From contig NIVC01001510.1 of NCBI GenBank assembly GCA_002269645.1, positions 186,001 to 250,000 of the forward strand: a stretch of 64,000 bases of DNA, written 5' to 3'. Below are positions 1 to 34,795 of this stretch, one piece after another. Position 1 is the first letter of the stretch. Every line of letters starts with the position of its first letter. A program made the position numbers and the translations under genes. A model generated the notes under the pieces. The model saw only the letters and a program-made list of their open reading frames with translations. It was not told the DNA's origin and did no database searches. This stretch comes from Macrostomum lignano (taxonomy: Eukaryota).

Positions 1-907
1 AAGGCGCGATTTTGGAGGTGAGGTGGGTGTCAACCCTCCTCGCCTCTCATTGGCTGGCGCCCCGATCACTAGGTGATCGATACCCGTATCGATATCGGCG
101 CTCGGCGCGCGCGCGCCGCAGGCGCGTGGCGCCAAGCGCCGTCCAGCCGCAGGCGACCCTCCCCAGCCACCGGCGACCCTCCCCAGCCGCAGGCGCACCT
201 ACCGATATGTATGCCCACCCTACCGATATGTACCCCGATATGTACACCCTCCCGAGCCGCAGGCGCACCCTCCCGAGCCGTAGGCGCCCATGCCGCAGAC
301 GCCCATGCCGCAGACGCCCATGCCGCAGGCACCCCGAGTGTACACTCTACCGAGCCGCAGGCACCCCGAGTGTACACTCTACCGAGCCGCAGGCACCCCG
401 AGTGTACACTCTACCGATATGTACACTCTACCACTCTCCCGATATGTAGTCAACGATATTAGGCTAGTGAAAACTACTTATAGTAGGTGAAATTGAGTAT
501 ATTTACATAAAAATGTAGATAAAACATATTGGTAGGTGAATAATGACGCATATTGCATATTAAAATGTACATATTGGAGCATATGAGCAGCAAAAACACA
601 CAATGTAGGTGTATGGGCAGAAATAGACAAAGCAGGTACTGTAGGCGCTACATAGGTGGAAATACACACAGCAGGTTTACAAAGTGTACTTTCGATACAT
701 ATCGGATTAATGTATAAAGCAGGTTTACAAGGCATGCATAAGGCGTAGTTGTATAATGCAGGTGCGCATGTATAATCAGATTATAGGCAAACGCCCAGGT
801 GCAACAGACGCGTAAATAATGTCACACCGACTAAAGAGTAAATATTGTCTAACCCGCAGGTGCATAAAAATTTTAACCAAAAGCGGTTCGGGGAAATCCC
901 AAAAGGG
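1..907 (+). repeat. Left terminal inverted repeat (truncated by window start)
   Basis: Reverse complement of 8562-9468; mirror ORF pairs translate identically (12..449/9020..9457, 478..735/8734..8991). Identity stops at 907/8562. Confidence 0.97.
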
Positions 908-1269
908 TGGTTCACGACCTAATGACCCGATATACTTTCAACACAATTAAACCCACAAGTGGGCTAGAAAAATGGACAACGTATTTCGATTGCGCTATCA
1001 GTACGCTAATCAGCGCAGCAAGTTCATGTCAGGAGTTCTACTCCAAGAGGCGGACCGCTGGGCCACAAACCGCCCCGAGGGAATAGGTGTCAAATGGGAG
1101 TTTTAACACTTGAGGGGATCCCGCTCAATGTACAGTGGAGGCGCCAAATGAGTAAGGACCCCTAAGTACAGTGCGGGCGTAAAACCATTTTCATCCCCAC
1201 GAGTCAAGGGATCCCAAGTGGGCACATAGGGGAATCCCAGGCGTGCAAAGACAGATCCTTATCTTTCAC

Positions 1270-4200
1270 TCACTCCCGAAAGCCATACGGGCGGCTAGCA
1301 GCCCCATACACCCTCTTAGTCATTACGCGCTGGAAAGTCTTGTCCATCTCGAGGGTCCGGATTGTACAGCTAGCCTTATCGCGCCTGAACTGGGCCTGGG
1401 GCAGGCGGACAGAGCCCCCGTGGCGCAGAATTTCCTGCAGCTCGTCCTCGCGCTCGGAAATCTCGGGCGTGACTCTGATGCCCTTGCACTTGAGCACCGA
1501 GTACAGCGACCTGTCGGGCTTCTCCACCACGTACCGGTAGAGCTTGGGGCCTCCCGTGGTGAACTGTACCATGCGGCAGCCAGCAGGTACCTCGTCAGTC
1601 CACTGCCCCAAACTCGAACCGCCCGGAGGCTCGTACTCGCCCGGGGAGCAGCGGTATACGACCCTGGGAGGAGGAGGAGAAGGATAAAGTGTTAAGGGGA
1701 GAAAGAGAGACAGAGACAGTTGAAAAAATTACTTACGAATCGGTATCGGCGTAAATGACGCGGGTTCCTAGACCCTCCAGAGCCTCGTAGAGTCGCAGCC
1801 GGGCGTGGGAGGTGGTGAAAACGCCAATAGGTACATTGGCGTACTTGAACGCCCGCTCGCCAGCACCGCCAAATCGGGGCTTGTACTCGAGCATCATGAA
1901 GCTCTCCCCAATTGGCTCGCACGACTTGACCTTGATCGAGGGGTCTGTCAGGCGCTGCAGCCACGCCTCGTAGCTGTCCACAATCTCTGTGGAGGTCAGG
2001 TCGTCGCGCTGGCAGAACTTGCCCCAGAGCCTGCAGAGGAAAAATAAATTTTATGTAAGTAGAAAAACATGGCCCCCACTGCAAGTAGAAAAACTTACGA
2101 GTTTAGAAAAATCTTGGCAACAAAGCGCAGGCCAGGATTCTCCTCCACCTTTTCCAGCCGGACGCCTTCGCGCTCGAAAAAGCTGGCCATGTAGGCAGCC
2201 TTGGCGTCCTCAGCCATCCCCGGCGAACCGCTAGACTCGGCTTTGAGCTTCAAAAAGTGTTTACATAATCTGCAAACAGGCCCGTGCGAGTCTCGGTCCA
2301 ATAGGCCAGGGCATGAACTGACTGCAGCTTGTAACCCAACTGCAGGGCTTTGTGGAGCTCTGGGGTCGACCACGTGCCGCGGAGCATTCTCTCAGCGTCA
2401 GTGTGTGTACACTCGCTGCTGCACTGGGTCTCCATGCAGACGCGGCAGAGGCCGAAAACCAGCTTCTTGTTAATCTTGGCGGGCAGTAGCGGGATGTGGA
2501 GATTGGTTGGCGGCAGAATCGACACCTCGGCGATGCCAAAATACCGGGCCAGCTGCAGCTCATCCAGTAGATGAGGCTCGGGGTGGTGTACCGGGTGCCC
2601 GACAGGGTACTTGTCAAACTTGTTGACAGTCGGGTAGAGCGACACCTAGGGGATAAGGATAATAGAGAATTAGAGGATAAGATAAACTCAAACGCATGTC
2701 AACTGTGTGTACAAGTGTACAAACTTACCACATCCCGATAGCGCAGCTCTACAGTCTCGGTGGCCTCGGCATGCGGGACAAAAGCCTCGGTACGGCCGCC
2801 AAACAGGGCATCCTCCAGGCGAATAGGCTGCTGGACTGGCGCTCCCTCGTCCTGATAGTCGTGCTCCCACAGAACACGCACATTGTATGCAGTGGAGAGC
2901 AACCGGGTGAAGCGCTCAGTCTCCTCATAAATCGCCCGCATTGGCTGGTTCTTGAGCGGGTGCAGCACGTCGCCGTTGGGGAAGCACTTGGGACAGCCAT
3001 GGAAGAAGCAGCCATGAAACTGCAGCACTGTCCTGGTCTCTGGGTCGAAGCCGTCGACCTTACGGCCCATGGCGAAAGCCTCGCCGCCCGAGTCCGCTGT
3101 CCGCAACCGGCCGCCAAACTCGGTTGCATTTAAATGTGCCAGCCAGCACCGCGCCTTGTGCGACTGTACATCGGACCGGCGGGAAATCACCCCAAGAGTG
3201 TTGGGCTCCATAAACTTGGTGGTGAAAACAGCCATAGCCAAGCCCGCAATGGTGTTGGATTGACAAATGCGTCCAGTCCGCAAATGTCCTTAATCAGGCG
3301 GGTATATTTCAGACAGCCTTCCCGCAAAATTAACGTGTCCTGCAGGCAGTAGTCCAGGTACTCCTTATTGAAATTAAACACCTGTCCCTCCTGCTTGGCC
3401 CGCCAGTCGGCGATGGAGTCATGCTGCTTGTTTTTCTTTCCTCCGTACATATCAATTGAGCAGTAGGGACCGACGTACCCCCAGTTTTCCGGCTGGTTAA
3501 ACACGTGCGGGAAATCTCCTTTGGTCAGTTGGGTGCCCAAACCAAGCGCCTTTGGGAATTGCGCCAGACCAATAGGGATGAAATTGAGGCTGTCCTTGAA
3601 GGTGATCTTGTCGCACTTCATGTACATTAGGCGGCTGTTCTGGAAGATCACTTGCGGCTTCTTCTTGGCCAGTCCGTTGAGTAGGGCGCCGAGCAGGAGG
3701 AATGCGTCATACGCAGAGCCATTGTGCGCAATAGCAATTGCCCCCTGCTTGAACACACTAGTCAGCCAGCAGTAAAATGCATCGATAGAGTGCGGCCCGA
3801 CAGATACAAACTCTCGCATCCCACAGGCACAGTCATTGTGCGAGACACAGCTCGTGAAATCGAGTGCCAAATCGCGTCCCGCAATGCAATTGGCTGAGCT
3901 GTGTAGTCCCCGCACACGCTGCAGCGGGGCCTGGGGAAGAGTTTGGGACACGCCTCGCAGGAGGTGGCAGCCGTAACCAAGTGTACCCGGTGCTGCTTGC
4001 CAGAGTCCACGTACGTCTCGAAATCATAGTAAACATACGGGGCGCTAGACTCTTTGGCTTTGGGCGGGGTGACAAAGCACTCGTGGGTGGCAGTTTCGTC
4101 GTACTGCTTGCAGACTGGGCACTTGGCATAACCACACTGATGCTCAGGGGGCTGGCCTACTTTTAGTTCTTCTAGATAGCCACACGTGCCGCAAACGTGG

Positions 4201-6338
4201 ACCGAATCACAGCGCGATCTGCCGGCCTTATTCTTGCGCTTGTGATTTTCTAGGCACTGAGCATTATAGCAATTTAGCCCGCAATCATGGCATCTTACAT
4301 ATGCGCGGTTTGCCTTACAGTTGGAGCCCGGAGTCTTGCATGTGCTGCAGGCATCAGCGCACTTGTGCTTCTCATTATTGCAGTCGTGGGCCATCTCGCA
4401 CTTGTCGCAGTAGTGGTGGCTGCCGAAAAACGCAGGCAGCTTGGTGACCACATTAAAGTGCTGCTCGACCAGGTGCAGGTGCAGAATCTCGGTGCCAGGC
4501 AGGTTGAAGATGCACCTGTTGGCCTCCTCTGCCCGGTACACGCGTACACCAAAATCGCGCCCCGGATGCAGCCGGTTCAGGGCACGGATCGCTTCAGGCA
4601 GTGCATCCACGCCGAAAGGACCAGCCTGCGAGACGGTTTGAAGAGTCTGTGGAGGGTAAAATATTTCTTTTAGTATTCCCTGATACTGTGTAAAAAATCT
4701 TATCAGAAAATTTTAGTATTCCCCGATACTGTGTAAAAATCTTATCAGAAAATATATCTTTTAGTATTCCACGATACTGTGTAAAAATTCTTATCAGAAA
4801 ATTTTAGTATTCCATGATACTGTGTAAAAATTCTTATCAGTACACAACTTACCGTGTAGAGGCCAGCTTCGATTTGTAGCTCAGCCACCAGCTTAGTCTG
4901 CGTGGGCGAATTGACCTTGATTGTGTGCCACACCCGCTTGGTGATGGACTTGGCCACGAATTGCAGGTAGGCGCAGGCCACGACCAGAGCGCGCAGCAGG
5001 CATCTCTTGTCCGAGTTGGTGATGCGGACATAGTGCCTGGAGAAGGCATGCCGCTCTTCTAGATGCTTGTTCTCGAGAGCACATCCACCTCGAGGCACCC
5101 AGGCCTTTAGCAACCGGATAGAAAAGTTGCCCGTCAGGACAGTGGCATCCGACTGTACAATCTTGTTGATGTGCTTAAACAACAATTCAGCCGTCATGCG
5201 GGATGCACGCACCGGGGGAGTGTGGGCCGCTTTGAGCATATTGTCGCTCTCGAATTTCGCGGCCATAAAGTCATCACCAGCCAAATCTTGCTTGAAAACT
5301 TCGAGCATGTCAGCAAACACCTCCCGCAAATCTTCGGTGTTGGTAATATGCACCACATACTCGACACCCTTTGCCCTAAACTTGGGCAGGTCACGCTGAT
5401 TATCCAGCCGGGCCGTAAAACCTGCATGGGGGGAATGGGGGAGTGTGAGTCAGCCCGGGTCTGTGTGGGAAATGGGGGGCGGATAACTCACCCGGTCCGG
5501 TAACAGATTCCGGCTGTGTTGGCGGGACAAACGCGTCTGAAAAAACACAAGGAGATAAAAAACCAGAAGAATCTGTCATTTTCCTGGCCCCAGCGTGTTT
5601 CCCCGCCCTAGCCCCAGCAATTTCTTAACAGAGTTTACTCTGCTGTCCCCGCAGCAACTCTCTGCAATTTCTTATCTGCACCCCCGCTGCAGCCTGTCGC
5701 AGCAGTCTTTGTTTACTCACCCCTGCAACTCTCTGTCGCAGCAATTTGCACCCCAGCTGCAGCCTGTCTGGGTAGCGCCCTATCTGCAGCCCCAGTCTGT
5801 CCCAGCAACTCTCTGCCCCCACCTGGCTGTAACTTGTCTAGCCTGCCCCAACGATTCTGCAGCAATTTCTTATCTGCCGCAGCACCCTAGCAACTGTCTG
5901 TTTTTGCAGCAATTTCTTATCAGCACACCCCTCCCTGTCTAGACAACACCCCACCCCAGTCTTTGTTTACTCACCCCTGCAACTCTCTGTCGCAGCAATT
6001 TGCACCCCAGCTGCAGCCTGTCTGGACAACACCCCCTAGCAGCAATTTCTTATCAGCACACACCGGCTGAAACTTGTCTAGCCCTCCCCTGCAACTCTCT
6101 GTTACAGACCCTGCCGCAGCACCCCACCCTAGCAACTCCAGTCTAGACCCCTGCAGCTGTCGCAGCAGTCTTTGTTGTTTACTCTGCGGTCCCACAGACC
6201 CTGCAGCTGCTGCTGCTGCTCAGCCCCTACCCCCACCCTAGCAACTACAGTCTAGACAGAAATTAATTAAAACTTACCATAAAGACGTTGCCTCTTGTCA
6301 GCCAGGAAAGCAGTTGCTGCGGCGCTGCGTTTAGCCAT
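1270..6338 (-). CDS. polB: Protein-primed DNA polymerase B (Polinton type), 7 exons, ~1276 aa after restoring three 1-bp homopolymer deletions
   Basis: Exons 6338-6278, 5536-5492, 5421-4853, 4646-2729, 2645-2099, 2030-1737, 1663-1270; all introns are GT-AG with matching phases. Motifs: DKRCLLRAL...HFNVV (OTU-like), Cys-rich region, Exo YDFET / HNGSAYD / YCLQD, VDGF..QFHGCFFHGC insert, RDV|VSLYP (A), KIFLNS|LWGKF (B), YADTDS|V (C), terminal KRVY..SRPYGF. Frameshifts at ~3910, ~3266, ~2254. Confidence 0.93.
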
Positions 6339-6579
6339 TTTGCAAACAGAGAGCGTGAGAGAGCGAGCGGAGAGAGAAGGATTATCTCTCTACCCTGGCT
6401 CTGGGGGTCTGTATATATACTAAAAAATCTGCTCAGCTCGCCTGTTATTGGATAAATCGCCAAAAACCAACCAAAATCATCAAAAATCACCCCAAAATCA
6501 TCACCCACCCCACCCTCCATCCGGGGTATATAAGGCGCTGCACGGCTGTCAGAGAGCTCTCTGCTGCTGCTGCTAAATC
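6339..6579. promoter_or_regulatory. Divergent Pol II promoter region for polB (-) and the PC4-like gene (+)
   Basis: TATATATA at 6412-6419 upstream of the polB ATG (6338); TATATAA at 6527-6533 upstream of ATG 6580. Confidence 0.6.
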
Positions 6580-7113
6580 ATGTCTTCTATCTCTCTATAC
6601 GAAAACTTTGTGGCGCGGAAGCCCACATTTGAAACTGAACACAACTTGATTGAAATTCGGCGTCTCTACACCAACGAGGCCGGAGTGTGGAAGGACGGCT
6701 TCCCTGCAATCTACTTGGCCGAGCCAGAGTGGAAGAAGCTCGAAGCTGCGCGCCCTGACCTGGAGGCTGCTGCCCGCCTTCACGTGAACAAGCGGGTCCT
6801 GTTGGGCAATTTCAAGGCAGTTGAAGCTTCGCGAGGGAGGATCCGTTTGCTGCGCAATTGGCTCAATCAGGACCCAAAGTTTAATTGGCGCTACACGATC
6901 GAATTCACGCCTGAACTGTGGCGCCGGATGTTTGCCGCCCGTTTGGACAAGCTCTTCAAGCCGGCACCTGAGGCACCCCCTCCAGCCAAGCGAGTCAAGA
7001 CAGACACGCCTCCGGTAGCCGGGACTGAGGTGGATGTTCTTCAGCTCATGGGTCTCAAACCCTACCAATCTCCACCCTGGGAAAATCTGTTTAACGAGGG
7101 TTGGGACTGCTAG
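6580..7113 (+). CDS. Tandem PC4-like ssDNA-binding protein, 177 aa
   Basis: LIEIRRLYTNEAGVWKDGFPAIYLAEPEWKKL aligns without gaps to PC4 [32 protein letters not shown]. A second degenerate repeat follows (IRLLRNW...IEFTPELW), then NLS-like PPPAKRVK; TATA box upstream. Confidence 0.75.
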   Translation: MSSISLYENFVARKPTFETEHNLIEIRRLYTNEAGVWKDGFPAIYLAEPEWKKLEAARPDLEAAARLHVNKRVLLGNFKAVEASRGRIRLLRNWLNQDPKFNWRYTIEFTPELWRRMFAARLDKLFKPAPEAPPPAKRVKTDTPPVAGTEVDVLQLMGLKPYQSPPWENLFNEGWDC

Positions 7114-7149
7114 TTTCCTATTGGTTCGCACCGCCTCACTCGATCCGTC

Positions 7150-7156
7150 TATATAA
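7150..7156 (+). promoter_or_regulatory. TATA box of the orphan gene
   Basis: TATATAA lying 73 nt upstream of ATG 7229. Confidence 0.5.
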
Positions 7157-7228
7157 TTAGTGTTTCCCCCTCTCCAGAGAGTCAAACCCTATCTCAGCTC
7201 TAATACTTTACTCTCTGTTGATTCTAGC

Positions 7229-8243
7229 ATGTCCCGCCGAGCTCTATCCAACCTCTGGGATAATAATCGCCCGACTGAAGAGTTAACCAGCCTCGACGGG
7301 GATATCCCTGAACACATAGTTCCCCTAGGCACTGAAAACAACGGAACTGATAATTGGGAGGCTGATCAATATCTAGCTTGGGCTATGTCCTATGATAGCG
7401 ACACCGAGTCTGAAGTTTTTGACCTCCCGCTGCTGGCTATCGGCGGGGTTGTGAACGGTGCCCCTGCTGCTACTGCCTCCGATTTGACTACCGCCTCAGC
7501 CGCCCTCTTTGACGTCTCTGTTGAGGAGCTGACCACAACCGGCCCTGCCTCTGCTGCGCCCGTCTCTGCTGCTGCCGCCTCTACTACGCCCGTCTCTGCT
7601 GCTGCTTCAACTACCTCCCACCGGGCCTCAATATCATCAGCCGCTACGCTCCTTCTCTTCGACGACGAGGACGAGGATATGTCTGAGGAGATCGCCGTGG
7701 TTCGTGAGCGCTTTCCTCGCATTGTGGCCTCATTTTTCCGCGGGGACATTGACTGGCTGAGGTCTCGGCATCCTGGCGGGCTGCCCTCCCAAGCTACCTT
7801 TGTCAGAGCCTTTAATCGGGTTCTTGATACTTTGGTTGCGAGGGGTGCCGGCCTACGGGAGGTGCTGGAGGCTGAGACTCTGCACCAGGACTGGTTGATG
7901 GGGCGCAATTCGTATGCCCCCGACTCGGAGGCGTACCTGGCCGGTCCGGGAGCACGGCCAACTGCGTGGGATGAGCCCGCCGCATGGCCCTCCAACTGGG
8001 AGGAGCACCTTTCGTTGGTGCGCTATACAGCGTCTCTACGTCTGTGGCGGCTGGAGGACGATTTAGATTTGGTAAGATATTACATTATATACACAACTCA
8101 TCTAATCATATACCTTGCATATATTCTATCTACATTGACTGTTATAATTTCCACATTGCCAGTCATCCGACTACTGCTTCGAGAGCGTGGAGGAAGAGGC
8201 CGCGTACGAGACAGCCCTGAGGGAGCGTATGGAGATTGACTGA
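7229..8243 (+). CDS. Acidic orphan protein, 2 exons (7229-8071, 8163-8243), ~307 aa
   Basis: Long ORF from MSRRALSNLW. A phase-0 intron 8072-8162 (TTG|GTAAGA...TTGCCAG|TCA) removes an AT-rich stretch and gives the C-terminus SSDYCFESVEEEAAYETALRERMEID. No family recognised. Confidence 0.7.
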
Positions 8244-8561
8244 TAAGGGTATTTCTCTTTGTACGCGGTTTGGGGAACCCAACACTGTACACTGGGTAGG
8301 TTAGAATGGGCGCTAGCTGGGGGCCTCTATGTGTGTATACACGGGGGTTAAAAGACCAATTCTGATAGCTCGCTCCTAGGGAGGAAATTGGCAGAGGGGC
8401 CGGCCCAAAAAACTGAAATGGGCTGGCCCCGGGCTCGAGTCCACCCACCTAAAATATGGAGGGTCATTACAACCTAATGACTCGAAATACTTTCAACGCA
8501 ATTGTACCTATAAGAGGGTTAGGGCGGCGGCGGCGGTGGCGAAAACGGGCGGCTAAAACCT

Positions 8562-9486
8562 CCCTTTTGGGATTTCCCCGAACCGCTTTTGGTTAAAATT
8601 TTTATGCACCTGCGGGTTAGACAATATTTACTCTTTAGTCGGTGTGACATTATTTACGCGTCTGTTGCACCTGGGCGTTTGCCTATAATCTGATTATACA
8701 TGCGCACCTGCATTATACAACTACGCCTTATGCATGCCTTGTAAACCTGCTTTATACATTAATCCGATATGTATCGAAAGTACACTTTGTAAACCTGCTG
8801 TGTGTATTTCCACCTATGTAGCGCCTACAGTACCTGCTTTGTCTATTTCTGCCCATACACCTACATTGTGTGTTTTTGCTGCTCATATGCTCCAATATGT
8901 ACATTTTAATATGCAATATGCGTCATTATTCACCTACCAATATGTTTTATCTACATTTTTATGTAAATATACTCAATTTCACCTACTATAAGTAGTTTTC
9001 ACTAGCCTAATATCGTTGACTACATATCGGGAGAGTGGTAGAGTGTACATATCGGTAGAGTGTACACTCGGGGTGCCTGCGGCTCGGTAGAGTGTACACT
9101 CGGGGTGCCTGCGGCTCGGTAGAGTGTACACTCGGGGTGCCTGCGGCATGGGCGTCTGCGGCATGGGCGTCTGCGGCATGGGCGCCTACGGCTCGGGAGG
9201 GTGCGCCTGCGGCTCGGGAGGGTGTACATATCGGGGTACATATCGGTAGGGTGGGCATACATATCGGTAGGTGCGCCTGCGGCTGGGGAGGGTCGCCGGT
9301 GGCTGGGGAGGGTCGCCTGCGGCTGGACGGCGCTTGGCGCCACGCGCCTGCGGCGCGCGCGCGCCGAGCGCCGATATCGATACGGGTATCGATCACCTAG
9401 TGATCGGGGCGCCAGCCAATGAGAGGCGAGGAGGGTTGACACCCACCTCACCTCCAAAATCGCGCCTTACGGAATCCCTTAGTAGT
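8562..9486 (-). repeat. Right terminal inverted repeat
   Basis: 8562-9468 mirrors 907-1. The 9469-9486 extension (ACGGAATCCCTTAGTAGT) has no partner inside the window and is inferred. Confidence 0.93.
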
Positions 9487-9725
9487 GACAAACACATTAG
9501 ACAGATCTAAAAACACATTCAACACATTGACAAACACACTCAACACATTCAACACATTGAGAAACACATTTAATACATCGACAAACACATTAAACACATT
9601 GACAAACACATTCGATACATTGACAAACACATTCATCACACTAGCAAACACATTCGACAGATCGACAAACACATTCGACAGATCGACAAACACATTCGAC
9701 AGATCGACAAACACATTCCACAGAT
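9487..9725. repeat. Degenerate 21-bp minisatellite (GACAAACACATTCGACAGATC)
   Basis: Tandem copies visible; they explain the heptad-repeat ORFs in the track. Confidence 0.85.
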
Positions 9726-11080: not shown

Positions 11081-11494
11081 ATGTATTTGCCGTTTCCTCA
11101 CACTAGCTCTCTCTCTCTGCAAGCAGTTTTACCTCGCTTACTCCGTACGGATTGATGTTTTTTGCATTATTTTTGTATGTCAGTCTCTGCCTCTGTGTGC
11201 TTTATTTTGCTGTATTCATTCTACTTTTATTGAAGAGGGAATCTACAGATAAACTGTGCAGACGGAGTCTCGGAGGCCCCGGTCTCAGACCTCTATTGAT
11301 GTTCACGCAGATCTCGCAAGTCGCCTCGTGATTCATAGGAGCTAAAATTACACCAGAAGATGATAATTTTCGAACTGATTGGTTGGCCTCGAAAATGAGG
11401 GATCTTGCGCATTCAAACTTGTCTTTTATTGATTAAATAAATTTGGAAATCAATGGCCGTCATATTTTTTCATTGAAACTGACATTGAGAGTCT

Positions 11495-12166
11495 AATGAT
11501 TGCAGAGTGGCTCAAATGATTGCAGAGTGACTCAAATGATTGCAGAGTGACTCAAATGATTGCAGAGTGACTCTGATGATTGCAGAGTGACTCTGATGAT
11601 TGCAGAGTGACTCTGATGATTGCAGAGTGGCTCAAATGGGAGCAGAGTGGCTCAAATGATTGCAGAGTGGCTCAAATAGGAGCAGAGTGACTCAAATGGG
11701 AGCAGAGTGACTCAAATGGGAGCAGAGTGATTCAAATGAGTGTAGAGTGACTTCAATCAGAGCAGAGTGACTCAAATGGGAGCAGAGAGACTAAAATGGG
11801 AGCAGAGTGACTCAAATGAATGCAAAAGTGTCTCAAATGAGTGCAGAGTGACTCAAATGGGAGCAGAATGACTCAAATGAATGCAAAAGTGTCTCAAATG
11901 ATTGCAGAGTGGCTCAAATGGGAGCAGAGTGACTCAAATGGGAGCAGAGTGACTCAAATGGGAGCAGAGTGACTCAAATGAGTGTAGAATGACTTAAATC
12001 AGAGCAGAGTGACTCAAATGGGAGCAGAGTGACTAAAATGGGAGCAGAGTGACTCAAGTCAGAGCAGAGTGACTCAATTGGGAGCAGAGTGACTCAAATG
12101 AGTGCAGAGTGACTCAAATGAGTGCAGAGTGACTCAAATCAGAGCAGAGTGACTCAAATCAGAGCA
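11495..12166. repeat. 20-bp minisatellite (GCAGAGTGACTCAAATGGGA)
   Basis: About 33 tandem units. Confidence 0.95.
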
Positions 12167-12819
12167 AAAACGAGTCCGATCATAACCAAGTGAGCAAAAA
12201 CTGACGAGTTCCAAAGACGCTATCTATCGAGCACGCTGTATTGATCTGTTTTCATCGAGAGTGACTTATTGAATTCACAGTAAATAAAATGAATACCTTC
12301 ACTCGGCACTTCTACTATGTAAGTTATGGCTCGAGAGTCGGATACTGCAGGCCTGGCTTCCCTAATTCGATCCCCATTCGCCCCTTCAAAGAACATCCGC
12401 CGGTTTTCTCCCAAGCCAGCAGGGGGAGGGGGAGTGGGAATTGCGCCAAATCGATTTAGGGGGGGGGGCGTGCCGCCACTGTAGCGCACAGTTTCTCCCC
12501 ATCTGCTGGGGAAAGAAATGTGATGAGGGAAGGGAGGAGAGGCGGCAAGCAGATAGGGGGCGGAGCTCCGCACCCAACAGTCTAGAAGTCATCGGCAGAA
12601 GTGGCATTTGCTCGCCAGCAGTAAACATAAGGGAGTTGGCTAACTATTCAAGCCTGAGGCGGCCAACCAATTCGCGTCTGGGCAGCTCGATCCCCCCTCG
12701 TCTCCCTTGATCGGCAGACCAATCAGGATAGAAAAATTACCGATTTAAAATTCCCCGGTTTAACTGCGGCAACAACTGCAGTGCTAAATTGATCTATGAT
12801 CTCTCCCTGGTCATTGTCA

Positions 12820-13973
12820 AATCTCTGTCTAATCTCTGGCTAATCTCTGGCTAATCTCTGTCTAATCTCTGGCTAATCTCTGGCTAATCTCTGTCTAATC
12901 TCTGGCTAATCTCTGTCTAATCTCTGTCTAATCTCTATCTAATCTCTGTCTAATCTCTGTCTAATCTCTGTCTAATCTCTGGCTAATCTCTGGCTAATCT
13001 CTGGCTAATCTCTGTCTAATCTCTGTCTAATCTCTGTCTAATCTCTGGCTAATCTCTGGCTAATCTCTGGCTAATCTCTGGCTAATCTCTGGCTAATCTC
13101 TGGCTAATCTCTGGCTAATCTCTGGCTAATCTCTGGCTAATCTCTGGCTAATCTCTGTCTAATCTCTGGCTAATCTCTGGCTAATCTCTGGCTAATCTCT
13201 GGCTAATCTCTGGCTAATCTCTGTCTAATCTCTGTCTAATCTCTGGCTAATCTCTATCTAATCTCTGTCTAATCTCTGTCTAATCTCTGTCTAATCTCTG
13301 GCTAATCTCTGGCTAATCTCTGGCTAATCTCTGGCTAATCTCTGGCTAATCTCTGGCTAATCTCTGGCTAATCTCTGTCTAATCTCTGGCTAATCTCTGG
13401 CTAATCTCTATCTAATCTCTGGCTAATCTCTGTCTAATCTCTGTCTAATCTCTGGCTAATCTCTGGCTAATCTCTGGCTAATCTCTGGCTAATCTCTGGC
13501 TAATCTCTGGCTAATCTCTGGCTAATCTCTGTCTAATCTCTGGCTAATCTCTGTCTAATCTCTGGCTAATCTCTGTCTAATCTCTGTCTAATCTCTGGCT
13601 AATCTCTGGCTAATCTCTGGCTAATCTCTATCTAATCTCTGGCTAATCTCTGTCTAATCTCTGTCTAATCTCTGGCTAATCTCTGGCTAATCTCTGGCTA
13701 ATCTCTGGCTAATCTCTGGCTAACCTCTGGCTAATCTCTGGCTAATCTCTGTCTAATCTCTGGCTAATCTCTGTCTAATCTCTGGCTAATCTCTGTCTAA
13801 TCTCTGTCTAATCTCTGGCTAATCTCTGGCTAATCTCTGGCTAATCTCTGTCTAATCTCTATCTAATCTCTGGCTAATCTCTGTCTAATCTCTATCTAAT
13901 CTCTGTCTAATCTCTGTCTAATCTCTGGCTAATCTCTGTCTAATCTCTGTCTAATCTCTGTCTAATCTCTGTC
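12820..13973. repeat. 11-bp satellite (CTAATCTCTGG/T)
   Basis: About 100 tandem units. Confidence 0.97.
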
Positions 13974-14479
13974 CTCTGTCCCCAATTTCTGCCTTCTCTC
14001 CCCAAATCTCTCTCGTCACTCCCTTTAATTTATCAATTTCGACCTAATCACATGATTTCTCAATGATGACCTTTCCATGATTTCGCTAGGATCTTTATTA
14101 GACCTCTCTATGATCTCTATTTGCCTCTGGCAGCCGCAGACTCCCCCACGCTGTCTCGCAAGTCGACCCAGGGGTACTCGTCCCCGCGTGTGTTCAAGGC
14201 AGACCCTAGGGCTGCTGGACAGACTGGGCTCCGGCGCTGGCGACCCTATCCAGTGGCTTCGGCCGAATTTGGGTATGCGGGTCTGGCTCACCAGCCTGCA
14301 GGCCGTGGTACTGCTTAACGTACCCTCTAATGCCTAAGGTGTTTGACCGTGCCGATGGGCTGGAAGGCCGGGGAGTAGTCCGGTCGCTAGCGGTCCTTTT
14401 TTCAAACCGGCTGGCTTGAGGTGTCGGCCAGTCGGGTACTCAACTCGCATAACGAGTAGCCCTCCCCCGCTTTTCAGCT

Positions 14480-15995
14480 ATGGCCACTAACGCCACCATC
14501 TCTAAAGAAACTGACCCGGTCGCCTCTGGCTCACCGGGATCAGCCGCTCCGGTAGCTACCACTGGTAGCACCAACGCCCAACCTGGTCCAACCGGGCCAG
14601 CTGACGCTGCCGCCGATCACCCTGGCCGCCAGTCTAGCCGACCGCGCACGGCCGAGTCTCGACGACAGCGGAACATCCGCCGCAACCGTAAGCGGCAGGA
14701 GAAGCGGGCTGCTGCTGCGTCTGAGGAGGGCGGGCAAGCCGCGGTGAGGCCTTCGGGAGCCACCGCAGCGGGGAGGCCCTCTGGGGAGTCCGGTGGCGCG
14801 GCTGGGCCGTCAGGAACCGCCGTGTCCTCGGGCTCTCAGGGGGGCAACCCTGCCGGCCTACCGCCTTCCAAAGACAAAGCGGCCCCGCTCAAGACCTCCG
14901 AGTCCTACGCGTCCAAGGTCAAGCAGCCGCTGCAACCCGCCGTGATGATCCTCGGCGGGGATTTCGACCTGACGCCCGAGCAGCTCGACGTCGCGTGGCG
15001 TACCATCGACGAGGGCTTGCTCAATCTAACCCTGGAGGGCGTCTTCGTGGACATCGTCAAGTCCACCAAGGCGAACGGGTGCATCCTACTGTGGTGCAAA
15101 TCCGAGGAGAGCACCCAGCTCCTGCGGGATCAGCTGCCCAAGTTCGACTGGCACAGCGACCTGGGCCAGCTGACCTTCGCCTTGGAGAGCGAGCGGCCGA
15201 AGACCATCCGCCATCGGATTTGGGTCCCGGCCGACAGTGCAATCAAGTCCGGGGAGCAGCTGCGGCAGCTCCTGCTCAAGCGGCACCCGGATCTCGACGC
15301 CAGTGGTCTTGTGTACCACAGCACGGTCCGCAAGGGCACGACCGGGGCCACAGTCATCCTCGGCCTGACGGAGGGATGGGCCAAGCGGCTACCGCACGGC
15401 ACAAACCTCCACCTTGGTCTCCATCAACTGACCATCCTCCGCTGTGAGGAGGGCAAGGTGGAGACCAAGAAAGACGGGAAGCGCGCCGCTCCCGGAGCTG
15501 GGGCTCATGCCCCGCCGGCCAAGCGGCAGCAGCAACCCGATCCCGAGCCTAACTGCTGAGTCCGCCTCGCGCGGACGTAGACCCGCCCGCAGTAGCCGGC
15601 GGTCCGGTCTAATCCAGCGCGCACTTGACGAAGCTCAGTCTCTGAGACTTCACCTCGAGCAGACTCGTGCCGCTCGCAAAAACACTGAAAGCCAGCCGAG
15701 GGAACTGGACGACGGCACGGCTCAGCCTTCCAACTGGTGGGATTACCACCAGGAGGACGCTGCCGGCCGAGCTCAGACTCCCGACGGCGGGGCGCAAGGC
15801 GAAGGCAGCAGCCGTACCCCAGTCGCTGGGGAGGAGGGCGGTGTAGCGCGGCTAGGTGACTCACCTGCCGTGGGCGCCGTGTCCGCCTCCGCGGCGGCTG
15901 GGGAGGCGGCTGAGCCTGAGCCAATGGAAATTGGCGACTCAACTCTCACCGATGAGGCTGAGAATGAGTTGCTTTTCTCCTCCCCTGGACAGTAG
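14480..15995 (+). CDS. LINE ORF1 (DUF4780-like), 14480-15559, probably continuing by frameshift to 15995
   Basis: RIWVP..E.LRQLLLKRHPDL..VILGL..L.LGL pattern resembles LOA-type ORF1. An overlapping frame (15444-15995) ends with TAG two bases before the ORF2 ATG. Confidence 0.65.
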
Positions 15996-15997
15996 AC

Positions 15998-18900
15998 ATG
16001 ACTGTCTCCCAGGGCATCCACTGCTTGCAGGTCAACCTGCAGCACAGCATTGCTGCTTCAGTCAACCTCTTGAAGCACACTGACCAATACGTGCCAGGGA
16101 TTATCCTTATCCAGGAACCTTGGACGCTTAGGGGCAGCCCCCAACATGTCCCCACCGGCTACCAGTGTTTAACCGCTGGTACCCGGGAGGGAAACCTGGC
16201 ACCAAGATCCTGCATCATGGTGTCCAGTTCTATTACGCATGGCTCAGATCAGACCTGTCCACCAGGGACATCTGTGTCATCCAGTCTGAAGACATACTCC
16301 CTGGGAGGACTACCCTCATCGCCTCGGTTTACCTACCGGGCGACGGCGAGATGATCCCAGTAGAGCTTGTCACACTGGTCGAGCTCTGCTCCACCAGAAA
16401 CTATGAGCTGCTCGTGGCAGGTGACATCAATGCCCACCACACCCACTGGGGCAGTTCTGATATAAACCAGAGAGGTGAAGACTTCCTGGCTTATATTGCT
16501 ACTACAACCCTTGAGTTCTGTAACTCGGGTAGTACCCCTACCTTCAATAACGGACGCCGATCGGAGGTGCTGGATGCCACCCTCGCCACGCCCAGGCTCT
16601 TCCGGAGCACTAGGGAGTGGCGGGTGCTTCCTGAGGCGTCCCTCTCCGATCACAAGTTCATCTCTTTCACGCTGGCCAGCGCCCGTAACGCAGGCCAGCT
16701 TTACTGGAAACGGAATGCTAGGAATACCGACTGGACCGCCTTCAGGCTTGCCCTGGAGGAGACCTATCGTTGCACTAGCACTCCAGTCTCCATCAACACC
16801 TGCGAAGAAGCAGATGAATTTGCGGCCGCACTTACGGACTCGCTCACTGCTGCCTTCGAAGCCTCATGCCCACTAAAGGCATATAAAGGCAAACAGTCGG
16901 CCCCATGGTGGAACCCGCAGCTTGGCGACCTCCGTCGCAGAACCAAAAGGCTTCACCGCAGGGCCCAAAAAACTAAAAACCCGGCCGACCAAACCGCCTA
17001 CCTGAACTCTATCCACGAGTTCAAGAGGCAGGTTAGGAACGCCAAAACCAACAAGTGGCGCGAATACTGTGAGGAACTTGAGGGCTCCCGCCCCACCTCC
17101 AGAATCGTTAAAGCCCTCACCCTGGACAAAATGTCCAAACTCTCCTCAGTCAAGAGAGCCGACGGCTCGCTCACTGAGAACCCAGGAGAAACACTGGAAG
17201 CGATGCTAACAGCGTTTTTCCCGAACGAGCCAGCCAGGCCCGACCCCCCTGACCACTCAGTGGGCGGACACGTACTGGCTGACTCAATCATCACGGAGGA
17301 CCGCGTTACTAAAGCTGTCTCCTCCTTCAAACCCTTCAAATCCCCAGGACCGGACGGCGTTGTGCCAGCCTTCCTGCGGGAGGCGGTGAAATGCACCGGT
17401 TTCCTGCGGAACCTTTGCCGGCTTCTGAAAGCTTGCATTGTGCTCGGCTTTGTTCCGAAATCCTGGACCGAGGCCAAGGTGGTCTTTATCCCCAAGCCTG
17501 GCCGACCGGACTACCGGTCCATTAAATCCTTCAGACCAATTAGCCTCACCTCCTCATTGGTGAAGCTGTTAGAGAGACTGGTGCTCTAACGCCTCCTCTC
17601 TGTGGAACTGAAGAACAAGCCGCTCAGTGAGAACCAGCATGCCTTTCGGGCAGGCAGGTCCACGGAGAGCGCGCTTCACGTTCTGGTTGACATGCTGGAG
17701 AAAGCCGTTCTTGGTAATGGCTACGCTCTCGCTGTCTTCCTCGACATTGTTGGAGCCTTTGATAATGTCCTCTTTGAGGCTTTTGACAGAGCTCTACGTG
17801 CTAGAGGAACCCACTCGCACCTCACCCGGTGGATCATGTATATGATCAGCCACCGTACTGCCACCGCACACCTGTTGGGCCACCAACGGACGGTAACCGT
17901 CTGCAAAGGCAGCCCCCAGGGCGGTGTCCTCTCTCCAGTTCTCTGGAACATGGTCATCGATGAGCTCCTCCAGGACAGCCATCTTGACCCCATCCTCAAG
18001 GTCGGTTACGCCGATGATGTCACTGCCGTGGCATCCGGACCGTCACCTGAAACCCTTAGAGATCTTTTGCAAAACTTCATTCGCTCTGCTGAACGTTGGG
18101 CGGACAGGTGCGGCCTCAGGCTCTCCGAGACCAAAACTGTCGCGATCATGTTCACCAGCAGGGTAAACTGGCGTATTCGCCCACTAAAGCTTTACGGGGT
18201 GGAAATTCCATCCTGCAAGCAAACCAAGTGTCTCGGCGTTACGCTGGACCACCGGCTGAGCTGGTCCACCCACGTCCAGGCCAAAACCAAAAAAGCCCTC
18301 GCGATTCTTGCGCAGCTGCGCAGAGCCGTCGGCACCACCTGGGGCCTCACCCCAAAGCGTCTCTGGTGGATCTATACCGCAATGGTCCGACCGGCCGTTA
18401 CTTACGCCGGCCTGGTCTGGACCAGCGCCTTGCAGATTAAAACCTGCCACGAAGCCCTCAAAAAGGTGCAGGGACGTGCGTGCCGCATGATCCTGAATGC
18501 CCCGCTCTCTGCTCCCTTTGACGGCCTCAACGCCTTTCTCTGCCTCCCGCCTCTGGACATCTTTGTCCGTCGCGAGGCTGCTAAAACCACCCGCCGGCTC
18601 ATCGAGGCTGGTGTTAGCTTCAAGCCACAAAGAGCGATGGCGAAGCGCAAGCTCCTGCCGCACTCTGACCTGTGCCTTAAAGTTCTGGAGGAGAGTGGGA
18701 GTGCGGCTGTCCTTTCGGACGCTGAACCGCGCTCCCTCAATCTCTACCAACGCTTCAAGGTCACGATCCCCTCCAGGGAGAACGCCAACGACAGCTGGGC
18801 CCCTCAGGAGGTTCACTGCTTCACTGACGGATCCTCCAAAGACGGTTTATCCGGCTTTGGAGTCTGTATCCTTATCAACGGCCGCGTGATTGCTACTCAC

Positions 18901-19701
18901 GCCCAACACACTGGCAGACTCTCCAGCGTCTTCCAGAATGAAGTCCTTGCCATCAGCTCCTGTGCAGCTGAGCTCCACTGCAAGGACTTCAAGGACAGAA
19001 GAATCTTCTTCCACTCTGACAGCCAGGCCGCTTTACAGGCCCTGTGTCACACCACTACGAACTCCCGAACAGTCCGCGACTGTATCGGGCAGCTCAACAA
19101 GCTGGCTCGGAGGAACACCGTCCGGCTCACGTGGATCCCAGGACACGCCGGCTTCAAAGGTAACGAGCTCGCCGACTCCCTCGCTAAGGCGGGCTGTTCC
19201 GGCTCGCCCCTTGGCCCCGTGCCCCTGGCCCCCATCCCCGCCACAGTCATTAATCGTCAGATTAACGACTGGGCGGACATCCTGCACTTGCGCAGTTGGG
19301 ATGGTATCTCCAACTGCCGCCAATCTCGTGCGGCAGTGCCCAATCCGTCCCTCAAGCTGCGGAGAATCCTTTTGAATCAAAATCGAAAAGATATCCGCGC
19401 TCTCACTATGACCTTCACAGGTCACGGTTGCTTTGCCAGGCACTGCTTCCTCCGATGTGTTCGCCGGAGTGAACTCTGCCCCTTCTGCAGCCTCGAGAAT
19501 GAAGATGCCAAGCACTTCGTCTGCTACTGCCCGGCCTTCAACCGAGACCGGCTCAACCACCTCGGGCCCAACCCGTCCCTGGACGACGTTTGCCGGCCCG
19601 AGAACATCCCACGGCTCATCCGGTTCCTCCGGGCCACCAAGCGAGCCTCCGTCTTCCCCACCGAAGACAACGCTGCAGACAGGACCGGCAGACCTCCCTG
19701 A
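15998..19701 (+). pseudogene. LINE ORF2: AP endonuclease, reverse transcriptase, RNase H, C-terminal CCHC; disrupted
   Basis: APE: QVNLQHS, IQEPW, GDINAHH, SDH. RT: QHAFRAGRST, FLDIVGAFD, PQGGVLSP, YADD, LGVTLD. RNase H: FTDGS, SDSQAAL, WIPGHAG..GNELAD. CPFC-x8-H-x4-C. One -1 frameshift near 16233 and an in-frame TAA at 17587-17589. Confidence 0.93.
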
Positions 19702-19812
19702 CCGGCCCCGCGCCCTAGCCTATGCGGGTCTTTCAGGGATTAGCGGAATGGGCGACGCTTGCCTCCCCGCTGCGTCTTCGGACCGCCCTGCAGCTAAGTC
19801 AAGTAAGTCAAG

Positions 19813-20557
19813 TCTCTATGATCTCTCTTTGATTTATCTATGATCTCTCTATGATCTATCTATGATCTCTCTATGATCTCTCTATGATCTCTCTATGATC
19901 TCTCTATGATCTCTCGATGATCTCTCTATGATCTCTCTTTGATCTTTCTATGATCTCTCTATGATCTCTCTTTGATCTCTCTATGATCTCTCTATGATCC
20001 CTCTTTGATCTCTCTATGATCTCTTTATGATCTCTCTATGATCCATCTATGATCCATCTATGATCCATCTATGATCTACCTATGATCTGTCTCCATCTCT
20101 CTATGATCTCTCTATGATCTCTCTATGATCTCTCTATGATCAATCTATGATCCATCTATGATCTGTCTCCATCTCTCTATGATCGATCTATGATCTCTCT
20201 ATGATCTCTCTATGATCTCTCGATGATCTCTCTATGATCTCTCTTTGATCTTTCTATGATCTCTCTATGATCTCTCTTTGATCTCTCTATGATCTCTCTA
20301 TGATCCCTCTTTGATCTCTCTATGATCTCTTTATGATCTCTCTATGATCCATCTATGATCCATCTATGATCCATCTATGATCTACCTATGATCTGTCTCC
20401 ATCTCTCTATGATCTATCTATGATCTCTCTATGATCAATCTATGATCCATCTATGATCTGTCTCCATCTCTCTATGATCGATCTATGATCTCTCTATGAT
20501 CTCTCTATGATCTCTCTAAGATCTCTCTAAGATCTCTCTATGATCTCTCTATGATCT
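19813..20557. repeat. 11-bp satellite (CTATGATCTCT)
   Basis: Tandem array starting directly after the LINE tail. Confidence 0.95.
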
Positions 20558-21589
20558 TTATAAACTCTGCCTAGTTGTTTCCATCTCTCCGCATATCCCT
20601 AAAAATATTGATTAATGCCGCCCAAAACACGCGCCACTCTCTGGAACTCCCTCTCGCCCGGTGCCCAACCCAGGGCTCGCTGAAGTTCGGCACTCTGCAG
20701 TGAAGAATCGCATTAAAATCAGAGCCCAGCCCTGGGGTGGCAAAGTGCATCCCCAGCCGATGCGAAATCAATACTGAGCACTGGAGTTGTGTAGGCAGAA
20801 GTGGATCAGTCTAGACAGTACAGGATTTCCGTACGGCTATATGGGCGGCCAGATTAAGAAAGTTCAGAATGGTACACATGCGGGCTAGAAGAGACGAAGA
20901 GACGGAAACAGATGTGCTTCCGAACAGACTATTTTTGCTACTAGAAGCAATCTGCCCCCCCCCCAACCAGCTCTGCTCAATTGGGACTCAGCCGTGAGCT
21001 CCAGCTTGCGCTTGCACGCGATGCCAATCTGCGAAGGCATCATTCATTGGGACACAATGCGGTCCCGGGACGGTGAAGCGGTGAGGCTCTGCACTTTACT
21101 CGTGCCCACCCGTTGCTAGGGACGCACAGCGCGCGCGCGGACACGGGTCTAATTAACCACAGCCAGCCCCCCCCCCGCCTCCCCCCAAGGACGGAGCGCG
21201 GACGCTGGAAAAGAAGCACAGAAAATAATTATCTCGGCGCAAGAAACGACAGGCTTTCAGCGAGAGGCGAAGCGGCCCCATCATTCCGGCAAAATTTGTC
21301 TTCATTGGCTGCTTGTTCTGCTGCTCGGAAAGCGAAACGGCAGATCTTTCTTCGGTTCTGTTAGCAGCCAGAAGATGCACAGCAGTGCCTTCGTTGCGAA
21401 ATGCATTAGCTAGATAGGGACTGCCCTATTGAGCTTAGCCTTATCAAAGTTACAGTTTACAGAATTATTTGTTTGAAAATCCGCCTAGCATACATCGCTA
21501 GTGAGAATCTGAAATTTTGCTTGAATTTCGCGGACCGCTAAAGAGACTAATAGTGCCAAATCGTGTCAACAACAGCCGGCAAGCCTTAC

Positions 21590-26624: not shown

Positions 26625-27358
26625 GGCCGCAACAGGTGGCGCTGCAGTCTAACAGCCGTAGGAGATGTTTTACAATTTCCCAATGGATGAATAAAAACTC
26701 CAGGGGCGGCTGGGGATCTCCGAGGTTAATTCGATTCGAGACTCGCTGGGCCCTCGGGCAGATAAATTTCAAGAGCGAAGGAGACTCGAAAATAAATTGG
26801 AGGGCTGAAATTGCCGATCCGCTAAACGAGCCGACTCGCTTTCTCCCGGCTCTACTGCTTCTATTTCAGTTCGTCTCCACGGCCACTTCAGCCGGAGACC
26901 CAATCCACACCGAGTGGCTTTTCCCAGACCCTGTGCGCCTTCCTCAGCTGATCACGGGCGAGGCAGGAAAAGGGAAGAGGGAAGCGCCGAGGTGGATTGG
27001 GGAGTACGGTTGGGGATGGGGAAGAGAAGCTGCAAGGGGGAATGACGGCATGGTAGACGCTCTCCGCCAGCTCCAGCAGAGCCTTTGCACCGGGGCGGCT
27101 TCCACTGGAGACGAGATAAAAAATTAACGCCCGATGCCACTTTACCCCACCCTCTGCCAGCACCCCGGCCTCTGAAATATTAAAGCTCAGAAGCTCAGAC
27201 TGTTATACTGAGGACAAACCTGGACGGCCATGCTGAGTGGCTCCACTCTTTAGTGACCGAGCTGGCTTCGAAATTTAATTCTGTACCAGACTTGAATTGG
27301 GATTCGTGGGATTATTTATAATCACGAACAAATAAAGCAGAAGGAAGGCCGATTATTT

Positions 27359-28223
27359 CTGACAGTCCTCAGTGCCCTGTGCTTCCTGTGACAGTCCTCA
27401 GTGCCCTGTGCTTCCTGTGACAGTCCTCAGTTCCCTGAGCTTCCTGTGACAGTCCTCAGTGCCCTGTGCTTCCTGTGACAGTCCTCAGTGCCCTGTGCTT
27501 CCTGTGACAGTCCTCAGTGCCCTGTGCTTCCTGTGACAGTCCTCAGTGCCCTGTGCTTCCTGTGACAGTCCTCAGTGCCCTGTGCTTCCTGTGACAGTCC
27601 TCAGTTCCCTGAGCTTCCTGTGACAGTCTTCAATTCCCTGTGCTTCCTGTGACAGTCTTCAATTCCCTGTGCTTCCTGTGACAGTCTTCAATTCCCTGTG
27701 CTTCCTGTGACAGTCTTCAATTCCCTGTGCTTCCTGTGACAGTCCTCAGTTCCCTAAGCTTCCTGTGACAGTCCTCAGTGCCCTGTCCTTCCTGTGACAG
27801 TCTTCAGTGCCCTGTCCTTCCTGAGACAGTCTTCAGTGCCCTGTGCTTCCTGTGACAGTCCTCAGTTCCCTGAGCTTCCTGTGACAGTCCTCAGTGCCCT
27901 GTGCTTCCTGTGACAGTCCTCAGTTCCCTGAGCTTCCTGTGACAGTCTTCAATTCCCTGTGCTTCCTGTGACAGTCTTCAATTCCCTGTGCTTCCTGTGA
28001 CAGTCCTCAGTTCCCTGTGCCTCCTGTGACAGTCCTCAGTTCCCTGAGCTTCCTGTGACAGTCCTCAGTTCCCTGAGCTTCCTGTGACAGTCCTCAGTTC
28101 CCTGTGCTTCCTGTGACAGTCTTCAGTGCCCTGTCCTTCCTGAGACAGTCTTCAGTGCCCTGTCCTTCCTGAGACAGTCTTCAGTGCCCTGTCCTTCCTG
28201 TGACAGTCTTCAGTGCCCTGTCC
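27359..28223 (-). repeat. 29-bp satellite, inverted right arm
   Basis: About 30 units of CCCTGTGCTTCCTGTGACAGTCCTCAGTG. Confidence 0.95.
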
Positions 28224-30787: not shown

Positions 30788-30945
30788 TGTTGTGGGTTGA
30801 TGGCTTTGCCATAGACATTTTTGTTACGCGACTGCGTTGATGAATGGAACCATGCTATTGAGTTATGAAATAAATGATAGACGCGTCAGAGGTCAACAGA
30901 CCGCTAGACTGACAATTGCTGAAGGCTAAAGCCAAAAGCACAACA
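30788..30945 (+). mobile_element. 158-bp solo LTR-like insert, copy 1
   Basis: TGTTG...CAACA ends, 5-bp TSD CCCTC, internal AATAAA. Confidence 0.7.
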
Positions 30946-32712: not shown

Positions 32713-32870
32713 TGTTGTGGGTTGATGGCTTTGCCATAGACATTTTTGTTACGCGACTGCGTTGATGAATGGAACCATGCTATTGAGTTATGAAATAAAT
32801 GATAGACGCGTCAGAGGTCAACAGACCGCTAGACTGACAATTGCTGAAGGCTAAAGCCAAAAGCACAACA
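32713..32870 (+). mobile_element. 158-bp solo LTR-like insert, copy 2
   Basis: Same sequence and TSD as copy 1. Confidence 0.7.
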
Positions 32871-34637: not shown

Positions 34638-34795
34638 TGTTGTGGGTTGATGGCTTTGCCATAGACATTTTTGTTACGCGACTGCGTTGATGAATGGAAC
34701 CATGCTATTGAGTTATGAAATAAATGATAGACGCGTCAGAGGTCAACAGACCGCTAGACTGACAATTGCTGAAGGCTAAAGCCAAAAGCACAACA
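34638..34795 (+). mobile_element. 158-bp solo LTR-like insert, copy 3
   Basis: Same sequence and TSD as copy 1. Confidence 0.7.

Follow-up and report, generated by a model that had tools for sequence, protein, structure and literature searches.

Organization of the element and its insertion site

A window of 64,000 nucleotides of the flatworm Macrostomum lignano (contig NIVC01001510.1, here C1510, positions 186,001 to 250,000; 764 Mb of assembly searched) was found to begin within a 9,504 bp element (G000:C1510:185983-195486), the first 18 nt of which lie to the left of the window. The element carries three genes, encoding a DNA polymerase of family B primed by protein (pPolB), a PC4-like protein and an acidic orphan, between long terminal inverted repeats (TIRs). 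Within the window the TIR arms span 1-912 and 8557-9468, with a complementarity of 99.9%; adding the genomic flank lengthens them to 930 nt, in agreement with the apparently identical repeats of at least 907 bp reported by an initial annotation made from the letters of the window. The termini read ACTACTA at the start and TAGTAGT at the end, i.e. (ACT)2//(AGT)2, giving a 3-nt terminal repeat. This copy is a chromosomal insertion within a host minisatellite, with GACAAA flanking both ends as a target-site duplication (TSD) of 6 bp.

The interior measures 7,644 nt, and the initial annotation had described these 7.6 kb as almost fully used by three genes. The three genes were recovered, while near-full use was not, as coding sequence covers ~69% of the interior and exons with introns ~87%. 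Its further proposal that integrase and virion genes are absent was upheld: 97 Polinton-type query open reading frames (ORFs) gave no integrase, ATPase, protease or capsid similarity in the window copy. With exons and introns filling ~87% of the interior, there is no coding room for a virion module (major capsid protein (MCP), penton, ATPase and adenain). No integrase match was obtained in this copy, in five other copies of the same family (family A), in a sister family (family B) or in a non-coding element with the same ends, all described below; the same queries did detect the integrase of a full Polinton.

The pPolB gene

The pPolB gene lies on the minus strand and comprises ~1,275 codons in seven exons separated by six introns (Table 1). 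Two pieces of its product scored above the PF03175 cut-off (75-86 bits for the pPolBs of the flatworm elements), and oyster and fish Polinton pPolBs were colinear with it from the terminal-protein-like N-terminus through to the C-terminus. The VQS serine, a vOTU-type cysteine and histidine, and exonuclease and polymerase motifs are present and are kept across 26 aligned proteins. A nuclease-like motif common to pPolB relatives is presumably the VSR-like insert. The putative terminal protein (TP) and vOTU domains were named by comparison with PMC11161782. Relative to nearly all other copies, the window pPolB contains three single-base frame breaks (~2257, ~3264 and ~3912), either real or due to assembly error, and the 14 other aligned loci have further frame differences of their own.

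Among homologues of the exonuclease region, 45 of 46 came from the host's own gene models. The nearest pPolBs outside the flatworm are 27-37% identical and are Polinton enzymes of molluscs, fish, amphibians and insects. No match was returned by a PDB sequence search with pPolB or by a metagenome scan with one pPolB. Fifteen relatives were identified on viral contigs, all of them distant; among the 11 examined, three had an integrase and none had the three-gene TIR layout. An IMG/VR contig of 13,142 bp was found to be a complete TIR-bounded virus with a related pPolB, a double-jelly-roll capsid and an A32 ATPase, without an integrase match.

The PC4-like and orphan genes, transcription and splicing

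The 177-aa product of the second gene was modelled with a pLDDT of 36 from the single sequence and of 89.9 from a seven-row alignment. The best matches of the model among solved structures were to human PC4 (TM 0.85 over the target, E 0.003, none under 0.001), and the PF02229 cut-off was passed by homologues from the sister family and from Polintons. Judged by this model, the protein is of the PC4/Sub1 fold, with single-stranded DNA (ssDNA) binding predicted. Three JGI and Logan proteins on contigs of <2 kb are 31-38% identical to it and are possible relatives from other organisms. For the orphan, no homologue outside the host's gene models was found among 343 candidates, and its best score in Atlas (0.76) was uninformative.

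The TATA boxes of the initial annotation were identified by motif scan as TATA-like boxes at 6412-6419, 6527 and 7150; no canonical polyadenylation hexamer was found by motif scan downstream of the orphan or pPolB. RNA mapping, which had been suggested as a check, was approached through contigs assembled from four public runs, each of a different study and presumed to be RNA, none of the listed runs being recorded as such. Seven introns in total, the six of pPolB and that of the orphan, were found to be skipped at GT-AG ends, each joint in two to four of the four runs. Expression is read from these spliced joints, the contigs giving no levels.

Table 1. Features of the element in window coordinates
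Feature	Position	Strand	Remarks
Left TIR	1..912	+	930 nt total; starts ACTACTA; 18 nt outside window
pPolB exon 7, to stop codon	1270..1663	-	Splice joints, colinear alignment
pPolB exon 6, remaining motif B and motif C YADTDS	1737..2030	-	Splice joints, motifs
pPolB exon 5, from motif A into motif B (first half)	2099..2645	-	Frame break ~2257
pPolB exon 4, vOTU histidine, region rich in Cys, exonuclease motifs I-III, insert resembling a nuclease, motif A start	2729..4646	-	Frame breaks ~3912 and ~3264
pPolB exon 3, terminal-protein-like domain (VQS serine) and vOTU-like start with cysteine	4853..5421	-	Domains by comparison
pPolB exon 2, 45 nt	5492..5536	-	Splice joints on both sides
pPolB exon 1, start codon, basic N-terminus	6278..6338	-	Splice joint in 2/4 runs; translation
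Divergent promoter region	6339..6579	.	TATA-like boxes 6412-6419 (minus, pPolB) and 6527 (plus, PC4); predicted by motif scan
PC4-like protein, 177 aa, two sheet-helix units, predicted ssDNA-binding	6580..7113	+	Model pLDDT 89.9
Orphan exon 1, acidic, Ala/Ser-rich N-half	7229..8071	+	TATA-like box at 7150
Orphan exon 2, C-terminal motif	8163..8243	+	Motif and intron position common to sister family's third gene
Right TIR	8557..9486	-	Ends TAGTAGT; 99.9% complementary to left TIR
Target-site duplication GACAAA, 6 bp	9487..9492	+	Same six bases before left end; host minisatellite

Copies of family A in the genome

A DNA search of the assembly showed that all 16 scored candidates (the best 16 of 426) carry the element at 95-100% identity, most of them end to end and one cut by a contig end. 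The three-gene layout, whose recurrence at independent loci the initial annotation had proposed to check, was found at 15 further loci (9.3-9.7 kb, 95-98% identity), and protein searches placed the polymerase and PC4 genes at ~60 loci each, with the best 139 of 236 polymerase candidates scored. All 15 two-ended copies among the 16 possess a 6-bp duplication and unclipped ACTACTA…TAGTAGT ends. They occupy 14 distinct sites, those on C1573 and C1640 sharing one. A count of 254 matches to a TIR 28-mer (control 0) was rejected as a measure of copy number, since the motif also occurs in the non-coding class. Clustered or inverted pPolB/PC4 matches were seen on C157, C471, C1090, C1157, C1158, C1753 and C3431, some mixing families A and B, and five PC4-only matches at 37% on C1753/C1176.

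Between the invariant ACTACTA and the conserved TIR core, terminal positions 8 to ~27 vary block-wise, with 12 types among 15 copies; this variable 20-nt stretch (positions 8-27) could be an origin-specificity determinant. Over 75 nt the two ends were identical in 10 of the 15 copies, differed by one base in another and were clearly unlike in four. The homogenised TIRs of the initial annotation therefore apply to the window copy (99.9%) but not to every copy.

Comparison of 12 copies (66 pairs, after removal of gapped codons, of C1640, whose site is a duplicate, and of two partial loci) gave pN/pS values of 0.12 for pPolB, 0.10 for the orphan and, on few changes, 0.42 for PC4. The pairs lack independence, and part of what they record may be older divergence between subfamilies. 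By these ratios, pPolB and the orphan are under purifying selection. Between copies, pPolB differs mostly by 1-4% and PC4, orphan and non-coding sequence by 0-1.3% (window 913-8556); the higher divergence of pPolB suggests module exchange between subfamilies.

The insertions bear on whether the element exists mainly outside the chromosomes, as a nuclear linear plasmid whose copies enter them through a non-Polinton enzyme (a retrotransposon or Ginger-type integrase) or only occasionally. Such a plasmid would suit the gene set, which is that of a minimal plasmid, the dUTPase of family B, which suits autonomous DNA synthesis, and ends unlike those of the resident Polintons examined. However, the uniform 6-bp TSDs and unclipped ends of 15/15 copies match the Polinton pattern, the dozens of dispersed insertions imply efficient and specific integration, and LTR-type (long terminal repeat) integrases need TG…CA ends. 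We consider this explanation distinctly unlikely. As an observed state, the nuclear linear plasmid offered by the initial annotation was not what was seen, the copies being chromosomal insertions with 6-bp duplications.

Resident Polintons and the possible source of an integrase

A Polinton integrase was identified at no fewer than 116 loci of the genome (the best 116 of 2,414 candidates scored). None of these matches came within 25 kb of any of the 104 related pPolB match positions (66 of family A and 38 others, some being pieces of one copy), while 71 of the 116 were within 20 kb of a pPolB of a different class. This integrase-linked pPolB hardly aligned with the family A and B proteins of the flatworm (best E 0.11), and a fragment of it scored 19.9 bits with PF03175. 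The available text of PMC8502044 defines Alpha (OTU and pfam03175-type PolB) and Beta adintovirus PolBs; judged by these definitions rather than by the Mayetiola/Terrapene reference proteins, the pPolB of the element would fit Alpha and the integrase-linked pPolB would fit Beta. A longer element uniting the same TIR and polymerase with integrase or capsid genes, which the initial annotation had named as evidence against its proposal, was not found in the searched set.

A full Polinton on C106 was found to be 12.1 kb long, with 135-nt TIRs, canonical 5'-AGTAGTAG…CTACTACT ends and a 6-bp TSD. Its genes comprise PC4, an rve integrase with chromodomain, adenain, a broken ATPase, a TBP-like ORF (PF00352, 75 bits) and presumed capsids, several of them frame-broken. 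The 'major-capsid-like' and 'penton-like' ORFs of the full Polintons are so called by presumption, from position and size, and the large major-capsid-like ORF gave no Pfam, PDB or viral-contig match. A Pox_A32 search of the genome was blank, which is no evidence of absence, a frame-broken Walker-A ATPase being visible in the C106 Polinton. The end of a second Polinton family is also canonical (AGTAGT type). An integrase family of 58% identity and different layout (C114:258766, C291, C494, C592, C738, C2079, C3493, C255, C5126 and C2385) is a candidate helper.

The available part of PMC8097293 gives a 6-bp TSD as a Maverick signature and describes a 5'-(AC)3A terminal motif in one fish Maverick. 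Ends that start with AC thus appear to be within the range of Polinton integrases, which makes a Polinton donor plausible.

Sister family B and phylogeny of pPolB

A further ~30 loci carry a pPolB ~62% identical to that of family A (~65% for pPolB DNA). The family-B copy on C1263 was read end to end and measures 10,443 bp; it has a TIR of its own, of which 370 nt aligned at 92%, and ACTAC…GTAGT ends, in a G-run. Its pPolB and PC4 genes are arranged divergently, as in family A, and are accompanied by a third gene and a dUTPase, and the 97 Polinton query ORFs gave no integrase or capsid. Part of the pPolB N-terminal region is present a second time near 8341-8588 of the stretch read. A third pPolB type (43% identity) was seen on C237, C19, C89 and C4420.

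Families A and B share four pPolB intron positions as well as the intron and C-terminal motif of the third gene, with a dN of 0.25 and a dS of ~2.1 for pPolB. The pPolB phylogeny that the initial annotation had suggested was built as a quick tree, in which the integrase-linked polymerase fragment fills 33% of columns. Families A and B formed one clade (SH-aLRT 100) on a stem of 1.38 substitutions/site, nested among animal Polinton pPolBs. The reduced layout and intron positions shared at a dS of ~2.1, together with the long common stem, indicate that the reduced layout is old.

This age has to be set against the possibility that the copies are passive deletion derivatives of an unseen or recently lost autonomous Polinton of the same polymerase class, whose genes hitch-hike. 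The nearest outside relatives are indeed ordinary animal Polinton pPolBs, three of 11 related viral contigs have an integrase, the full Polintons of this genome possess PC4-like genes too, the copies are frame-broken and the searches scored best candidates only. Against this, two families with ~65% pPolB DNA identity share the reduced layout and intron positions, pPolB and the orphan show purifying selection, no remnants of the missing genes were seen and no such parent was present among the 104 polymerase match positions. Intact vertebrate Mavericks are moreover intronless in the available part of PMC8097293. A deletion relic is therefore quite improbable, and the view of the initial annotation that the element is organised is supported by the recurring layout, the splicing, the selection, the distant sister family and the lack of a longer integrase- or capsid-bearing relative in the searched set.

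A non-coding palindrome with the same ends

At C106:353964-375023 an 8.9-kb non-coding near-palindrome was identified that has TIRs of 2.5 kb and a 6-bp TSD, is bounded by ACTACTA…TAGTAGT and contains the full Polinton nested inside it. Over the terminal 156 nt its identity to family A is 95.5%, with further TIR patches at 69-79%, and the 97 Polinton query ORFs gave no match to it. The palindrome TIR occurs in at least 40 places (the best 40 of 129 candidates), many of them similar elements of 8-9 kb. The 21-kb TIR pair at this locus was considered as a long helper with the same TIRs and rejected, since its junctions show the 12.1-kb canonical Polinton inside the non-coding element. From its ends, the palindrome probably uses the family-A polymerase and the same integrase as a non-autonomous passenger.

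Other DNA with these ends might also be expected if the element were the segment in charge of replication in a Polinton-like virus of two or more parts, with a partner segment of the same ends bearing integrase and capsids and integrating separately. Segmented pPolB viruses do exist, the available part of PMC11071296 describing bidnaviruses and up to twelve segments. The 8.9-kb molecule shares the ends, nine TIR pairs among those listed (3.1-9.8 kb) could be assigned neither to family A nor to the non-coding class, and the mosaic ends of four copies out of 15 suggest that molecules replicating together have recombined. However, the sole end-sharing molecule read is non-coding, none of the nine TIR-pair loci is among the 116 integrase matches and their sizes mostly suit the non-coding class, while the loci with an integrase carry a different polymerase of their own. 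We regard a multipartite virus as unlikely.

Proposed nature of the element

The explanation that we consider probable is that the element is an old, self-replicating Polinton offshoot without integrase and capsid, integrated in trans. Its genes are of nuclear Pol II type and are transcribed and spliced, as seen from the spliced joints. The pPolB polyprotein would prime on the serine of its own terminal protein and the vOTU domain would cut the primer off, as suggested by the conserved residues and the available text of PMC11161782. With such self-cleavage, no separate protease gene would be needed. Synthesis would start at the ACT-ACT ends and displace a strand coated by the PC4-fold protein, and the long TIRs would re-form the origin, tending to equalise both ends. 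Adenovirus is known to prime by jumping back on a 3-nt terminal repeat. Insertion of the copies was precise, each at an unrelated site and with a duplication of 6 bp, and the inserting enzyme is probably a Polinton-type rve integrase from one of the >100 integrase-bearing loci here or from another Polinton.

The initial annotation had offered a nuclear linear plasmid, a helper-dependent satellite of a full Polinton and a segment of a multipartite virus, and the helper-dependent option fits best of the three, because every two-ended copy has the 6-bp TSD typical of Polinton integrases. The self-replicating satellite accords with the TSDs of 15/15 copies, the selection on pPolB and the co-resident full Polintons; the helper itself is inferred, and the terminal motifs of the element differ from those of both Polinton families examined.

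Several observations weigh against this explanation. All copies seen are chromosomal in the assemblies and contigs that were examined, so that the free linear form is inferred. Current activity of any copy is conjectural, the window pPolB being broken in three places and the others frame-disturbed. Both Polinton ends examined are the reverse of the element's motif, with no further TIR sequence in common. The two ends are unlike in four of 15 copies, nine TIR pairs could be assigned to neither class, and the pN/pS pairs share the dependence stated above. In family B, only the C1263 copy was seen end to end, and the locus on C2286 has the polymerase and one end, without PC4 and the second TIR. 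The depth of the searches (116 of 2,414 and 139 of 236 candidates) could have missed a rare autonomous relative.

Tentatively, and with rather less than even expectation, the elements can be placed in a three-tier system of nuclear parasites, in which full Polintons would provide integrase and perhaps capsids, an ancient clade of intron-bearing replicons without capsid and integrase, its polymerase being of the other class and its end motif reversed, would replicate itself as protein-capped linear DNA, and non-coding palindromes with the ends of these replicons would exploit them in turn.

Other features of the window

A non-LTR retrotransposon lies inside minisatellites at window positions 14453-19812, with ORF1 and endonuclease, reverse transcriptase and RNase H and one in-frame stop at ~17587. 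Long minisatellite arrays were found at 11489-13970, 19820-20560, 21930-22690, 24689-28224, 29390-36000 and 46500-48000; the arrays of the window include one of 29 nt that is inverted and one of 31 nt.

Comparison with known systems

Polintons are defined by a polymerase and an integrase. The element shares with Polintons/Mavericks (adintoviruses with Alpha-class pPolB) a TP-vOTU-exonuclease-palm pPolB, long TIRs, a 3-nt terminal repeat and a 6-bp TSD, but is without an integrase, ATPase, protease or major or minor capsid gene. Examined for Polinton hallmarks, it possesses a pPolB with TP and vOTU (domains by alignment) and neither an rve integrase nor a virion module. Its ends begin 5'-ACTACT and not 5'-AGTAGT, and so differ from the canonical (AGT)2//(ACT)2 or (AG)3//(CT)3. 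The 930-nt TIR and the 6-bp TSD of 15/15 copies lie within the ranges given for Polintons in the available text of PMC10748475 (TIRs of 100-1,500 bp, TSDs of 5-8 bp). With 9.5 kb and seven spliceosomal introns it contrasts with the vertebrate Mavericks of 12.7-24.6 kb, and with the intronless intact ones, in the available part of PMC8097293. Nine capsid-less Polintons in the accessible part of PMC4028283 have likewise lost MCP, protease and ATPase together. Compared with these, the element is also without an integrase, yet its insertions are precise.

Transpovirons travel with giant viruses of amoebae and are not known to have introns, and fungal linear plasmids of the pGKL type are cytoplasmic, with their own transcription system. 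According to the available text of PMC11161782, transpovirons are, like the element, linear and capsid-less, have a pPolB-derived TP-vOTU replicase and depend on another element; their replicase, however, is without exonuclease and fused to an SF1 helicase, whereas the element has exonuclease motifs and no helicase region. The same text gives the pGKL-type plasmids a Polinton-derived TP-vOTU-EXO-PALM pPolB and no capsid, as in the element. Those plasmids are not known to be integrated with 6-bp TSDs, whereas the element is so integrated and uses nuclear splicing. Bidnaviruses and integrase-less MELD viruses have an Alpha-class pPolB without integrase (PMC8502044 and PMC11071296, available parts), as the element probably does, but they encode capsid proteins and the element encodes none; the vOTU of the bidnavirus is inactivated (PMC11161782, available part), whereas the element keeps the cysteine and histidine.

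Within the literature covered, which lay outside Repbase (where an entry may exist), supplements and the original Polinton papers, there was no account of this family or of any animal pPolB element that has introns and TSDs but neither integrase nor capsid, and the available parts of PMC6431247 and PMC3014272 held nothing closer. A eukaryote-wide survey, as described in the accessible text of PMC10748475, kept only integrase-linked pPolB genes, so that elements of this kind would have been filtered out. If the three-tier system holds, such elements would escape surveys requiring an integrase beside pPolB and may be widespread. Work on the replication and integration of Polintons has been mostly in silico, and an element with all its genes spliced in a laboratory flatworm would offer a system in which free protein-capped DNA, the recognition of ends by integrase and dependence on a helper could be observed directly. 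Its replication module appears to persist alone under selection in an animal nucleus, and may be a living analogue of the step from Polintons to linear plasmids and transpovirons.

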